NCBI RefSeq assembly: GCF_017348835.2
Contig: NZ_CP071375.1
DNA from: Escherichia coli
Lineage (GTDB): Bacteria; Pseudomonadota; Gammaproteobacteria; Enterobacterales; Enterobacteriaceae
DNA length: 64,000 nucleotides
Reading direction: 5' to 3' (one strand)
Shown here: positions 15,685 through 52,066 of the stretch, piece by piece
Numbering within the stretch: the first letter of the stretch is position 1
Layout of the letters: the number at the start of each line of letters is the position of its first letter
Translations under genes and position numbers: made by a program
Notes under the pieces: generated by a model
Database searches by the model: none
Seen by the model: the letters and a program-made list of their open reading frames with translations, nothing else
What the model was told of the DNA's origin: nothing

Positions 15685-16812
<1,128 letters not shown>

Positions 16813-17098
16813 TTATGTTGGCGTTTTCTATTCAGTATAGAAGTGGGAGCGGCCAGGCGAGATGCGGAAGTTCTGGAATGTTTCTTTTTTTGGTGATGGT
16901 GACTGAAGCAATTTGGCTACTTTTGCAATGTGACAAGTTATGGCACGGCTGGCTGGTGGCGAAGAATTTTGATGATTGGGGCGCGCAGAATAAAACTGGC
17001 TCAGCTTCAGTTGATCAAATGAGGAGTGAGAAGTCCGAAACAAGACTCACTGTATAAATAAACAGCTATTTTATTGAGGAAGGGTAAGATAACGGCGG

Positions 17099-17332
17099 GT
17101 GCCTGAAGCTTTCCGGTTTCAGGTTAACTCTGAGGTCTGGAAAGATGAAGCCCCAGGAGATATTTCTATCAACCCTGGGGCTACCTACCCAAACCTGAAC
17201 AATTTGGATGGTAGTCCCTTCTTCGCATGGAGGCAATATAAACATGCTGACGAAATATGCCCTTGTGGCAGTCATAGTGCTGTGTTTGACAGTGCTGGGA
17301 TTTACGCTTCTGGTCGGAGACTCGTTGTGTGA
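17099..17332 (+). CDS. mokE: Possible mokE, the overlapping reading frame that couples hokE translation; start codon uncertain
   Basis: Open frame in a different phase overlapping the hokE start, as in hok/mok loci; the annotated start at 17099 is GTG and lies close to the likely mRNA 5' end. Confidence 0.3.
17125..17200 (-). ncRNA. sokE: Expected position of the sokE antisense RNA (boundaries approximate)
   Basis: Inferred only from hok/sok family architecture (antisense to the mok leader upstream of hok); no promoter or terminator pinned down. Confidence 0.3.
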
Positions 17333-17396
17333 GTTTACGGTGAAGGAACGTAATATTGAGTTCAGGGCTGTTCTCGCTTACGAACCGAAGAAGTAG
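17244..17396 (+). CDS. hokE: HokE, type I toxin (small membrane-depolarising peptide)
   Basis: ATG at 17244; 50 aa [50 protein letters not shown], typical Hok TM helix plus conserved C-terminus. Confidence 0.9.
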
Positions 17397-17402
17397 CCGT
17401 TG

Positions 17403-17496
17403 TGCGGGGAGCAATCCCCGCATATCCGGTTGTCAGGTCAGAGTGGTAAGGCACCTGCTTTACACTTTCGCCCGCAGTCAGTGATGGCTGCGGGCG
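17403..17496. other. Two perfect hairpins downstream of hokE (hok mRNA 3' fold-back region / entD 3' end); the first carries a GGGG-N6-CCCC motif
   Basis: TGCGGGG-agcaat-CCCCGCA at 17403-17422 and CGCCCGCAG-N10-CTGCGGGCG at 17469-17496, read directly; neither has a clear U-tract. Confidence 0.6.
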
Positions 17497-17517
17497 AATC
17501 GTACCAGATGTTGTCAA

Positions 17518-18138
17518 TTAATCGTGTTGGCACAGAGTTATGACTATTTTTTCTTTTATCTGCCAGTGCACAGCAAACATCTCATTCTCACGATGAATGA
17601 TGACCTGCTGTTTATTCCAGCTAATTATCTGATAGTCCAGAAAACCTGCATCAGTTTGGATCTCACTTGCCTTAAATGCGCTCTCTTTGGCGGAAAATGC
17701 CAGTGTCAGCGCCAGAGAAAAGGCTAAACCGCAGTCAGCGAGTCGCTCGTGTTCTGCTGGTGTAATAATGTTGTCTGTCAATTCGGTCGCTGTTTGCGCA
17801 GAAAAAATTTCTTCGATATCAACGCCAATCGGTTGACGGGAAACCACGGCCAATGCCGTAGCCCCGCAGTGGCTAATACTGCCGTATACCTCCGCAGGCC
17901 ACACCGGTTGGCGTAGCTCGCCGATTGCGGGCACACATTTATAGCCATATTCCCGCAAGGCATAAACAGCAGCGATCCGTCCGGCTAAATGCTCCGTTTT
18001 ACGTTTACGTCCAGCGTGTTGCAGTTGTGCGTAGTGCGGCAGCCAGAGTAAATCCTGCTCACAAAAATTCGCCGGATCGAACTCAACAAAATGCAGCGTA
18101 TGTCCGGCAAAGGGGAGGGAGGTATGCGTAGTTTTCAT
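17518..18138 (-). CDS. entD: EntD, phosphopantetheinyl transferase for EntB/EntF
   Basis: ORF 17518-18288; start taken at MKTTHTSLPFAGH giving 206 aa (the longer ORF runs into a REP element). Confidence 0.88.
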   Translation of the reverse strand: MKTTHTSLPFAGHTLHFVEFDPANFCEQDLLWLPHYAQLQHAGRKRKTEHLAGRIAAVYALREYGYKCVPAIGELRQPVWPAEVYGSISHCGATALAVVSRQPIGVDIEEIFSAQTATELTDNIITPAEHERLADCGLAFSLALTLAFSAKESAFKASEIQTDAGFLDYQIISWNKQQVIIHRENEMFAVHWQIKEKIVITLCQHD

Positions 18139-18174
18139 ATCGACCATATTCGAGACTGATGACAAACGCAAAAC

Positions 18175-18275
18175 TGCCTGATGCGCTACGCTTATCAGGC
18201 CTACGTGGTCCTGCAATATATTGAATTGGCAAGATTTTTGTAGGCCGGATAAGGCGTTCACGCCGCATCCGGCAT
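18175..18275. repeat. REP/BIME-type palindromic repeats between entD and fepA
   Basis: GCCTGATGCGCTACGCTTATCAGGCCTAC and GTAGGCCGGATAAGGCGTTCACGCCGCATCCGGCA, typical REP palindromic units. Confidence 0.8.
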
Positions 18276-18312
18276 GAACGACGCGCACTTTGTCAACAAT
18301 CTGACGTTAGCA

Positions 18313-46443: not shown

Positions 46444-46726
46444 TAATTTGTCCTTTTCAGTCAGTGCAAAAGTCGAGTAAAAGGCATAACCTATCACTGT
46501 CATAGGTAAGAGCTTAGATCAGGTGATTGCCCTTTGTTTATGAGGGTGTTGTAATCCATGTCGTTGTTGCATTTGTAAGGGCAACACCTCAGCCTGCAGG
46601 CAGGCGCTGAAGATACCAAAGGGTAGTTCAGATTACACGGTCACCTGGAAAGGGGGCCATTTTACTTTTTATCGCCGCTGGCGGTGCAAAGTTCACAAAG
46701 TTGTCTTACGAAGGTTGTAAGGTAAA

Positions 46727-51837: not shown

Positions 51838-52066
51838 TTTTACTCCATGTCGTCGGTACTGCGAGTGTCGCAGATAAACATACCCAAAAGAAAACCCTCA
51901 CCGTCAGGCGGCGAGGGTTTAACTCACATGATGATACTGACTGTTGCTCACTCTTTGAAGTGATTTGCGTCACATTCAGGGAATTCCTCAATGCAGCGCA
52001 TTATGTATAAATCTTAATCGCCTTGGTTTATGGAAGACGAATTAGCGTGTTTTGTAAATCAGAGGA

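Follow-up and report, generated by a model that had tools for sequence, protein, structure and literature searches.

An undisrupted hokE/sokE locus of the hok/sok type I family between ybdK and entD of a non-K-12 Escherichia coli

The hokE/sokE locus

The DNA analysed here, a stretch of 64,000 nucleotides called the window, belongs to an ordinary E. coli: over 20 kb it is ~100% identical to the pig isolates PE164 and F2_81. Between ybdK (15685-16803, minus strand) and entD (17518-18138, minus strand) it contains an ATG-started open reading frame of 50 codons plus stop, preceded by a Shine-Dalgarno (SD) sequence (Table 1). The product matches the Pfam family HOK_GEF (PF01848) with 33.3 bits (cut-off 22), shares 44% identity with the Hok protein of the R1-type hok/sok system of p1658/97, which served as the R1 comparison copy, and has Cys14 and Cys29. 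The matches of the protein to the NCBIfam Hok models were all below the cut-offs of those models. RefSeq annotates the gene as hokE in near-identical genomes, one of them F2_81 (99.8% identity). The Rfam model 'sok' (RF01794) was found at its full length (1-157) at 17097-17252 of the plus strand, with 87.1 bits (gathering score 59); the model is oriented in the mRNA sense and matches K-12 hokB, K-12 hokC and R1 in the same way. No insertion sequence (IS) is present between ybdK and entD.

These matches bear out an earlier reading of the DNA made without database searches (the sequence-only reading), which had described a canonical 50-amino-acid Hok toxin gene in an apparently undisrupted locus of the hok/sok type I family. 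Very probably, the locus is a structurally complete hokE/sokE module, consisting of a small toxin and an antisense RNA, at the ybdK-entD site of a non-K-12 E. coli. hokE/sokE is an annotated and published locus; the finding is real but ordinary and already known. The limits of the module are indicated by strains O157:H7 and E41-1, in which it is the unit of a tandem repeat: the mutual similarity of the copies begins at agaagtccgaaaca and stops at the end of hairpin 2, and matches in other genomes break off at 17497-17498.

Table 1. Features of the hokE/sokE locus (positions refer to the window)
Feature	Position	Strand	Basis or remark
Whole hokE/sokE module, promoter region to terminal hairpin	17029-17498		Unit of tandem repeat in O157:H7 and E41-1
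LexA (SOS) box CACTGTATAAATAAACAGCT, predicted	17048-17067		CTG-N10-CAG; overlaps -35 region of hokE promoter
hokE promoter, -10 hexamer TAAGAT	17085-17090	+	Inferred
Full-length hokE mRNA, ~400 nt, predicted	17097-17498	+	5' end from Rfam model, 3' end inferred from hairpin 2
tac (5' translational activator element) GGGUGCCU	17097-17104	+	Pairing with 17450-17457 in minimum free energy (MFE) fold; inverted repeat I6
5' leader hairpin	17109-17144	+	Predicted folds
SokE antisense RNA, 60 nt, predicted	17141-17200	-	Mapped from K-12 annotation
Anti-SD (ucb-like AGCCCCAGG)/SD-like CCUGGGGCU hairpin	17149-17182	+	Folds, inverted repeat I7
Alternative-phase ORF from TTG 17204, 42 codons	17204-17332	+	Only plausible remnant of proposed mokE frame
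In-frame upstream ORF, 62 aa (12-residue extension plus HokE)	17208-17396	+	Better of two weak mokE candidates
sokE promoter: -10 TACCAT (17208-17213), 17-nt spacer, -35 TTGCCT (17231-17236)	17208-17236	-	Read from sequence
hokE SD, GGAGG	17229-17233	+	Read from sequence
hokE coding sequence, 50 aa plus stop	17244-17396	+	ATG-started ORF, Pfam, RefSeq
Tyr46 codon TAC within UACGAA, TadA A-to-I editing site (Tyr to Cys)	17379-17381	+	Motif present
Hairpin 1, core GCGGGG-AGCAAU-CCCCGC	17396-17430	+	Folds, inverted repeat I13
fbi (fold-back inhibitory element) AGGCACCU, 8 nt	17450-17457	+	Single-stranded stretch between hairpins 1 and 2
Hairpin 2, terminal stem of module	17467-17498	+	Folds, inverted repeat I1

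The locus aligns base for base with hokE/sokE (b4415/b4835) of K-12 MG1655 when the IS of the latter is set aside. The two occupy the same site and share the LexA box, the sokE promoter, the hok SD, tac, fbi and both hairpins. They differ at two of the 50 Hok residues (V8A, R41K) and at ~5% of the nucleotides, five of these differences being in the SokE target region. Since the hokE locus of the window is only 94-95% identical to that of most E. coli, assignment to a cryptic Escherichia clade was considered and rejected: the surrounding 20 kb is at least 98.4% identical to many E. coli. It is the locus itself that is polymorphic.

The locus was compared with relatives, a set of 50 hokE-like loci from more than ten genera (some counts refer to 49 of them). 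The Hok reading frame is intact in all 50 except for one lost stop codon (L039), and the SD sequence GGAGGCAA is kept in 49. In the alignment fold of the 50 relatives a stem of invariant pairs sequesters GGCA together with the hok start codon. HokE shares less than 52% identity with the Hok proteins of plasmids. The overexpressed HokE coding sequence was reported to be toxic (bioRxiv 10.1101/2025.08.07.668861).

The codon of Tyr46 carries the motif edited by TadA, and K-12 hokE mRNA has been found to be edited to ~40% (PMC12214031). The codon is TAC in 48 of the 50 relatives and TGC (Cys) in the other two. RNAalifold predicted a stem around the site; when folded alone this hairpin was weak (-2.2 kcal/mol, z = +0.4), its support coming from the alignment fold.

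Promoter region and the sokE gene

The LexA box begins 49 nt upstream of the mRNA start, matches the consensus TACTGTATATATATACAGTA at 15 of 20 positions and has an identical sequence in K-12, whose hokE is counted among the SOS-induced genes (PMC11951105, PMC8406316). A predicted box of the form CTG-N10-CAG that overlaps the promoter would place hokE in the LexA (SOS) regulon. In this feature hokE is unlike R1 hok. A LexA-repressed toxin promoter combined with a constitutive antisense RNA or sRNA antitoxin is also known from tisB/istR-1, dinQ/agrB and symE/symR (PMC11951105), whose toxins and RNA architectures are, however, unrelated to those of hokE and lack the tac/fbi fold-back. The box lies upstream of the segment that the sequence-only reading had assigned to the locus; both the box and the TadA site at Tyr46 had been overlooked in that reading.

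In most of the 50 relatives a TAnnAT hexamer is found 6 nt upstream of the conserved GGGTGC, at the place of the putative -10 hexamer of hokE. A scan of 16800-17600 on both strands with consensus promoter and terminator models called none, the hokE promoter, the sokE promoter and hairpin 2 being below the thresholds. The promoters and the terminator were therefore assigned by homology to K-12 and by conservation in the family.

The K-12 gene sokE (b4835) extends from 103 to 44 nt upstream of hokE, in a stretch without indels between K-12 and the window. The predicted SokE folds into a free 5' tail and a terminator hairpin (-23.8 kcal/mol), the stem of which is the minus strand of the anti-SD/SD-like hairpin. 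The sokE promoter region (17201-17243) is identical in K-12 and the window, and both promoter hexamers are conserved in the family.

Predicted pairing within the hokE mRNA

Position 1 of the Rfam model corresponds to 17097 of the window; in an R1-type hok mRNA sequence it is at most 1 nt away from the 5'-terminal base. The full-length hokE mRNA has a predicted folding energy of -174 kcal/mol (z = -8.9). In the MFE fold the 5' tac pairs with the 3' fbi, in agreement with the 5'-3' pairing that had been suggested for a check by RNA structure prediction. The 3' fold-back element is not formed by the two hairpins, to which it had been attributed; it is the 8-nt stretch between them.

The GGGTGC of tac is invariant in the 50 relatives, and the tac/fbi pairing is kept in 49-50 of the 50 (RNAalifold, more than ten genera). 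Between subfamilies the two elements change in a compensatory manner (R1, GGCGCUU/AAGCGCC; IncF, GGGUGU/ACACCC; hokB, GGGUGCCUGAGA/UCUCAUGGCACCC), and fbi is always located 48-54 nt past the stop codon. Taken alone, the duplex (-15.2 kcal/mol) is not significant: its energy was reached by 8.4% of the shuffled sequences and by 3.9% of window segments. Because shuffles and window segments often match the duplex energy, the support for tac/fbi comes from conservation and not from the window sequence alone. The family falls cleanly into two branches. In 20 of the 50 loci, the SOS branch, tac is GGGUGCCU and a LexA box is present; the other 30 have tac GGGUGCUU and no such box. Of the two tac sequences, which differ by C/U, that of the SOS branch would make the closed tac/fbi pairing more favourable.

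The paradigm of the family, hok/sok of plasmid R1, has the architecture predicted for hokE: an mRNA of ~400 nt, a 5' tac complementary to a 3' fbi located 48-54 nt past the stop codon, and a leader that includes an anti-SD/SD hairpin and the gene of an antisense RNA. It differs in being plasmid-borne and in mediating post-segregational killing, whereas hokE is chromosomal.

Further pairings were predicted in the leader. The 5' leader hairpin shows compensatory changes at five of its seven pairs in the alignment, and compensatory changes were also found in the GAGGC/GUCUC stem by RNAalifold of the 50 loci. The anti-SD/SD-like stem is a perfect 9-bp helix (17149-17157 with 17174-17182). Its counterpart in R1, judged by position, is formed by the aSD A70-C72 (70-75) and the SD at 105-109 (PMC9841398). 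In the model of the truncated (processed) mRNA the 5' end refolds and a dcb-like pairing appears. The SD-like hairpin stays closed in the MFE structure of this form, which does not reproduce the 'open' state of R1 with a free SD. Matches of the leader to miRNA families were dismissed as sub-threshold chance matches on hairpins.

The 3' hairpins and IS186

The two perfect hairpins noted in the sequence-only reading are indeed found after the toxin gene. In hairpin 1, 8 bp (17403-17410 with 17415-17422) form a perfect core, which is extended to 17396-17430; the energy of the hairpin is -23.8 kcal/mol (z = -5.5), and none of 200 shuffled sequences was as good. Four of the six pairs of the GCGGGG/CCCCGC core are invariant, the remainder is kept in at least 48 of the 50 loci and two outer pairs covary. 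Hairpin 2 is a 14-bp stem (17467-17480 with 17485-17498; -27.7 kcal/mol, z = -7.6, 0/200 shuffles as good), in which the E. whittamii locus L009 shows a compensatory change from C-G to U-A. R1-type hok has the same 3' order of hairpin, fbi and terminal hairpin. The stem of hairpin 1 probably protects the 3' end of the processed mRNA; hairpin 2 is presumed to be the transcript end. R1 has a U-tract terminator, in contrast to hairpin 2, which is not followed by a U-tract in the single-copy context; where the module is repeated in tandem, AUUUCGUUUU comes after the hairpin 2 of copy 1.

Hairpin 1 is also an insertion target of IS186. In K-12 MG1655 IS186B is inserted 18 nt past the hokE stop codon, inside hairpin 1, and separates fbi and hairpin 2 from hokE; at this site the window has no IS. 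K-12 hokC carries an IS186 as well, ~19 nt past its stop codon. The GGGG-N6-CCCC of hairpin 1 presumably resembles the kind of site that IS186 prefers, and the near-invariance of this hairpin suggests why IS186 keeps inserting in hok loci. Inactivation of hokE by IS elements has occurred repeatedly, in many strains.

The contrast drawn earlier between a K-12 locus disrupted by an IS and the undisrupted one seen here had a wrong premise, the window not being K-12 and IS-free hokE being common. Of 5,400 complete E. coli genomes, about half or more have a hokE 3' region without interruption, and two tandem copies are found in many; IS-free loci have already been reported (PMC7232551). K-12 is the exception, and the role of chromosomal hok loci is best studied in IS-free strains such as the present one, which carry a complete hokE module with predicted SOS control.

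Reading frames upstream of hokE

The comparative alignment shows where the R1 model fails to transfer, namely at mok. In R1 the mok gene is clear: it starts with AUG 116, 7 nt past GAGG, and has 70 codons out of phase with hok. No start codon was found in the hokE leader at the position equivalent to the mok start of R1, hokB or hokC. The only two canonical starts nearby are ATG 17208, which is in frame with hok and is part of the sokE -10 box, and TTG 17204 in the +2 phase. The frame relationship varies among the annotated K-12 mok genes, mokC being in frame with hok and mokB out of frame. In the K-12 hokC (gef)/mokC/sokC locus, which is chromosomal like hokE, mokC thus has the phase of the ORF starting at ATG 17208. 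However, mokC begins 57 nt before hokC and shares 9 nt with the 5' end of SokC, whereas ATG 17208 precedes hokE by just 36 nt and lies 8 nt beyond the mapped SokE.

In most relatives the ATG inside the sokE -10 box is the sole upstream start codon. It belongs to an ATG[G/T]TAG motif present in 42 of 49 relatives, and in 31 of the 49 it opens a 12-codon ORF that terminates at AUGCUGA or AUGCUAA over the hok start. The form of the upstream ORF varies among the 49 relatives between this 12-codon uORF, an in-frame extension and absence. In Escherichia hokE a 4-nt insertion (TATA, 17237-17240) puts the mini-ORF in frame with hok.

Proposed mode of action and alternatives

The features described above are compatible with the following scheme. 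LexA bound to its box, which is present in the DNA, would repress a weak hokE promoter; the regulation is taken from the K-12 literature. Upon DNA damage an mRNA of ~400 nt would be synthesized from about 17097, a start suggested by the Rfam model and family conservation. Pairing of tac with fbi would render the full-length mRNA inert, the pairings being predicted and conserved and their function assumed by analogy with R1. This form would be inert because AGCCCCAGG blocks the SD-like CCUGGGGCU and a local stem ties up the hok SD and AUG. Slow trimming from the 3' end would take off fbi and halt at hairpin 1, whereupon the 5' end is predicted to refold and CUUCUUCG (17218-17225) could pair with CGAAGAAG (17386-17393). 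The processed mRNA would then either be bound by the constitutive SokE RNA (transcribed from 17200 to 17141) and destroyed, or be translated into the 50-aa membrane toxin. Editing by TadA, which turns Tyr46 into Cys, probably makes the toxin more active.

It is possible, if somewhat doubtful, that the module is structurally intact and yet functionally silent, i.e. that it has no working mok leader and Hok is hardly translated, the locus being a non-killing relic or having some other role at the RNA level. The missing mok start codon and the variability of the mok-like ORF among relatives fit this reading, and the coincidence of the conserved ATG with the sokE -10 box could alone explain the conservation of the former. 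Chromosomal hokA, hokB and hokC showed no post-segregational killing and no activation by rifampicin, according to Pedersen & Gerdes 1999 as cited in a preprint (bioRxiv 10.1101/2025.08.07.668861). Deletion of hokE in K-12, where the locus is disrupted by an IS, gave no persistence phenotype (PMC8406316). However, the Hok ORF, fbi, hairpin 1, the editing site and all the RNA elements are kept in the 50 loci, which is unexpected for a relic, and in the 31 relatives mentioned the uORF terminates precisely on the hok start, a classic arrangement for coupling. The repeated IS inactivation in many strains suggests that the intact form has a cost.

As to how an active hokE-type locus would be translated, we tentatively propose, while considering it rather unlikely, that loci of this type work without an R1-type mok. 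The mini-ORF starting from the ATG of the sokE -10 box hints at a coupling in which ribosomes terminate and then reinitiate; the TATA insertion of Escherichia hokE would have fused the mini-ORF to hok, giving a 62-aa extended Hok or some other form of coupling.

Translation of an R1-like mokE in a different phase, coupled to hok, is improbable. The sequence-only reading had pointed to such a candidate, and the overlapping frame does exist: it is open for 77 codons (17099-17332) and has the relative phase of K-12 mokB and of R1 mok (mok AUG at 116 and hok AUG at 174, an offset of 58 nt; PMC9841398). What it lacks is a plausible start. It contains no ATG, and its canonical starts are limited to GTG 17099 and TTG 17204. 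The former is at position +3 of the mRNA, where a ribosome-binding site cannot fit. A TTG at the place and in the frame of the latter is found in 11 relatives, but it is not preceded by an SD sequence, and its 42-aa product has no family match (NCBIfam). Moreover, in 33 of 49 relatives the frame is closed by a stop codon 1-25 nt upstream of hok.

Finally, the 3' hairpins might have nothing to do with hokE and be generic elements of the intergenic region, for example a terminator of entD or a palindrome of the REP type. This idea is extremely improbable and largely refuted. In its favour, the stop codon of entD, on the opposite strand, is 20 nt from the end of hairpin 2 and neither hairpin has a U-tract. 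Against it, the tandem copies duplicate both hairpins along with hokE, copy 1 having no entD after it; none of the 50 hokE-like loci, most of which have divergent flanks, has lost hairpin 1; and the hok of R1-type plasmids shows two hairpins in the same arrangement.

Identity and setting of the locus

Comparison of sequences indicated that the window comes from an E. coli strain other than K-12; over 20 kb surrounding the locus, identity was ~100% with the pig isolates PE164 and F2_81 and 98.4% with the next-best E. coli genomes. The hokE product gave an above-threshold match to Pfam HOK_GEF and was 44% identical to R1-type Hok. Together with two strong folds downstream of the ORF, this confirmed the Hok gene with two 3' hairpins described in the sequence-only reading. 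The Rfam hok/sok leader model RF01794 matched at full length (17097-17252, 87 bits; gathering score 59) in mRNA-sense orientation. The model also matches the hok strand in K-12 hokB and hokC and in an R1-type plasmid, and its position 1 lies no more than 1 nt from the first base of R1 hok mRNA; the R1 sequence used for this anchoring was confirmed in plasmids at 100% identity.

Features of the hokE/sokE module and its flanks
Feature	Position	Strand	Remarks
ybdK	15685-16803	minus	GCS2 family; one flank
whole module	17029-17498 (about)		limits set by tandem copies
LexA box	17048-17067		CACTGTATAAATAAACAGCT; overlaps -35 region of weak hokE promoter
hokE promoter -10	17085-17090		TAAGAT (putative); weak promoter
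mRNA start	~17097		predicted, at GGGUGCCU
leader hairpin, first	17109-17144
leader hairpin, second	17149-17182		AGCCCCAGG paired with CCUGGGGCU
SokE	17200 to 17141	minus	mapped from K-12 annotation
sokE promoter -10	17208-17213	minus	TACCAT
sokE promoter -35	17231-17236	minus	TTGCCT
hokE	17244-17396	plus	ATG start, 50-aa product
Tyr46 codon (within UACGAA)	17379-17381	plus	3' end of hokE coding region
hairpin 1	17396-17430		-23.8 kcal/mol, z = -5.5
hairpin 2	17467-17498		-27.7 kcal/mol, z = -7.6
entD	17518-18138	minus	phosphopantetheinyl transferase; other flank, then fepA

A 69-codon antisense ORF (17066-17275, minus strand) spans the hok leader. In related genomes (L001, L002, L003 and L060) PGAP annotates it as 'hypothetical protein', often with a frameshift flag; most likely these calls are annotation artefacts arising from the leader's structure. 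The entD/fepA gap contains REP/BIME-type palindromes (18150-18290) and a match to Rfam ES036 (CssrF; 18197-18238, minus strand, 42 bits; gathering score 37.6). Matches to the rnk leader (51883-51991, minus strand, 125 bits) and to the STnc70 sRNA (46577-46670, plus strand, 44 bits, just over the gathering score) are unrelated to hokE.

Predicted structure of the hokE mRNA

In the minimum free energy fold of 17097-17500 (-174 kcal/mol, z = -8.9) the first 8 nt of the mRNA pair with AGGCACCU at 17450-17457, between the two hairpins. The earlier reading of the hairpins as the fold-back element is only partly correct: the fbi is formed by the stretch that joins them. The order 3' hairpin, fbi, terminal hairpin is that of R1-type loci, and the second leader hairpin stands where R1 has its anti-SD/SD stem (PMC9841398).

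In the window sequence alone the tac/fbi duplex was not significant, being equalled in 8.4% of shuffled sequences and by 3.9% of segments from the window. When one genome was scanned for each species, 53 hokE-like loci (protein identity 70-100%) emerged in Escherichia, Citrobacter, Klebsiella, Kluyvera, Pseudocitrobacter, Enterobacter, Phytobacter, Kosakonia, Trabulsiella, Yokenella and other genera, and 50 mRNAs were aligned. The Hok ORF was intact in all 50, L039 lacking only the stop codon. GGGTGC at the 5' end was invariant and GCACC at the 3' end was present in 48 of 50, in surroundings that diverged freely. RNAalifold predicted the tac/fbi helix, which 49-50 of the 50 sequences preserve. 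Compensatory changes back the 5' hairpin and the GAGGC/GUCUC stem, and also the outer pairs in hairpin 1. Because the tac/fbi core is invariant within the hokE subfamily, the comparison was extended across subfamilies. There the complementarity was maintained by compensatory change, always 48-54 nt past the stop codon: GGGUGCCU/AGGCACCU in hokE of the window, GGGUGCCUGAGA/UCUCAUGGCACCC in K-12 hokB, GGGUGU/ACACCC in IncF plasmid hok and GGCGCUU/AAGCGCC in R1-type hok.

Four of the six pairs in the hairpin 1 core (GCGGGG...CCCCGC) were invariant, the other two being preserved in at least 48 of the 50 loci. By analogy with R1, where 3'-UTR mutations act via RNase degradation (PMC9841398), hairpin 1 is presumed to be the stem that halts 3' trimming and shields the active shortened mRNA. 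Hairpin 2 forms the end of the tandem repeat unit and is likely to be the transcript end. In tandem copy 1 of O157:H7 (L060) it is followed by the U-rich tail AUUUCGUUUU, whereas in the window (single copy beside entD; 17467-17510 compared) the tail is AAUCGUACC, and no terminator was called there by the scan. Because of this difference termination may be leakier in the entD-adjacent copy, with antisense read-through into entD. U-rich tails were seen in L060 copy 1 and in L005/L009, in which hairpin 2 adjoins a further hok copy or other DNA.

SokE, the editing site and mok

The predicted fold of SokE has a terminator stem preceded by an unpaired 5' tail, and the sokE promoter stretch is identical in the window and K-12. 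The UACGAA around the Tyr46 codon corresponds to the anticodon-loop motif of tRNA-Arg that TadA uses. At this site ~40% A-to-I editing of K-12 hokE mRNA has been reported (PMC12214031). The Tyr46 codon was kept in 48 of 50 relatives (alignment A1, columns 302-304), and TGC (Cys) was hard-coded at position 46 in L041 and L052, a pattern that fits Cys46 as the functional residue once A-to-I editing has occurred.

A different-phase frame (17099-17332) had been proposed as mokE. It is indeed open but contains no ATG; its canonical starts are a GTG at mRNA position +3 and otherwise only TTG 17204, and in 33 of 49 relatives a stop 1-25 nt upstream of hok closes the equivalent frame. R1 mok starts at AUG 116, 7 nt past the SD (PMC9841398), and in K-12 the SokB and SokC 5' ends share 9-11 nt with the starts of mokB and mokC. 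Unlike these three, hokE has no start codon at the equivalent place (~17186-17192). The only conserved upstream ATG, 17208 (ATG[G/T]TAG), doubles as the sokE -10 box. Among 49 relatives this position showed a 12-codon ORF ending in AUGCUGA/AUGCUAA over the hok start (31 loci), an in-frame hok extension of 61-64 aa (10 loci, among them all five hokE relatives in Escherichia; the window shows this form too), an ATG with an early stop (one locus) or ATAGTAG instead of ATG (seven loci). A 4-nt insertion, TATA, between SD and AUG sets the hokE loci of Escherichia apart from most other genera in the family. ATG 17208 appears to be the better of two weak mokE candidates. Its configuration varies, and the annotated K-12 mok genes are both in frame (mokC) and out of frame (mokB) with hok; according to a recent survey, Mok is not reliably assignable in hok homologues (bioRxiv 10.1101/2025.08.07.668861).

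LexA box and proposed mechanism

hokE has been listed as one of the SOS-induced type I toxins (PMC11951105, PMC8406316). The LexA box lies outside the segment delimited in the sequence-only reading. Such a box (CTG-N10-CAG, beginning 49-61 nt before +1) was found in exactly 20 of the 50 hokE-like loci, all with the mRNA start GGGUGCCU, and in none of the 30 starting with GGGUGCUU. The family thus divides cleanly into an SOS-regulated and a non-SOS branch. Several species carry both, e.g. Escherichia sp. MOD1-EC7003 (L005, L019).

Sequence elements, predicted pairings and pairing conservation were observed, and we infer transcripts, processing, coupling and any killing. The module is most likely an SOS-inducible version of the R1 scheme. 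Relief of LexA repression would lead to synthesis of full-length mRNA, kept closed through tac/fbi. Slow 3' trimming back to hairpin 1 would be followed by the predicted refolding of the 5' end, and the processed mRNA would then meet one of two fates: capture by SokE with subsequent destruction, or translation into toxin, whose toxicity is probably raised by TadA editing of Tyr46 to Cys. The main rival is a module that, though complete, is effectively silent, a state reported for hokA, hokB and hokC on the chromosome. The mok comparison and the two-branch split are minor by-products.

Insertion sequences and tandem copies

In K-12 MG1655, IS186B starts 18 nt past the stop of hokE (b4415), inside hairpin 1 (GGGGAGTAATCCCC), and parts the remaining 3' region from hokE. 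Alignment to K-12 across the whole module (~95% identity) revealed no IS in the window, in agreement with the earlier description of the locus as undisrupted. This state looks surprising only when K-12 is assumed. Searches of 5,426 complete E. coli genomes were sampled at even spacing, and in about half of the sample nothing interrupted the sequence between the hokE stop and entD. A break at window position 17407 occurred in ~35%, with IS186/IS421 at the break in both genomes inspected (MG1655, SY3626C5), and a break at 17498 with an island next to it in ~10%. The simple single-copy layout of the window was found in about one fifth, and two tandem modules, as in O157:H7, in ~40%. A duplicated hokE without IS has already been described in strain NRG857c (PMC7232551). 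Given these frequencies and the NRG857c copy, the window locus is the known hokE/sokE in its common undisrupted natural form, and is not novel.

The locus behaves as an insertion-sequence sink. IS186 prefers G/C-flanked sites such as GGGG-N6-CCCC, and the near-invariant GGGG-N6-CCCC of hairpin 1 is its site in K-12 hokE; IS186A lies ~19 nt past the K-12 hokC stop. Some strains have extra IS3 and IS1 elements within the hokE leader, one strain being shown with both. The IS sites examined were window 17403-17422, L004 2508-3852, L058 1-432 and L061 1329-4914.

The tandem modules of many E. coli have a period of ~503 bp (L060 11211-12012; L002 3296-3950), and the SokE target region differs between copies. 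Copy 1 of O157:H7 encodes a Leu18Pro Hok variant. In some strains (E41-1, L002) an island with genes of SDR oxidoreductase and ABC transporter type, not entD, follows the second copy.
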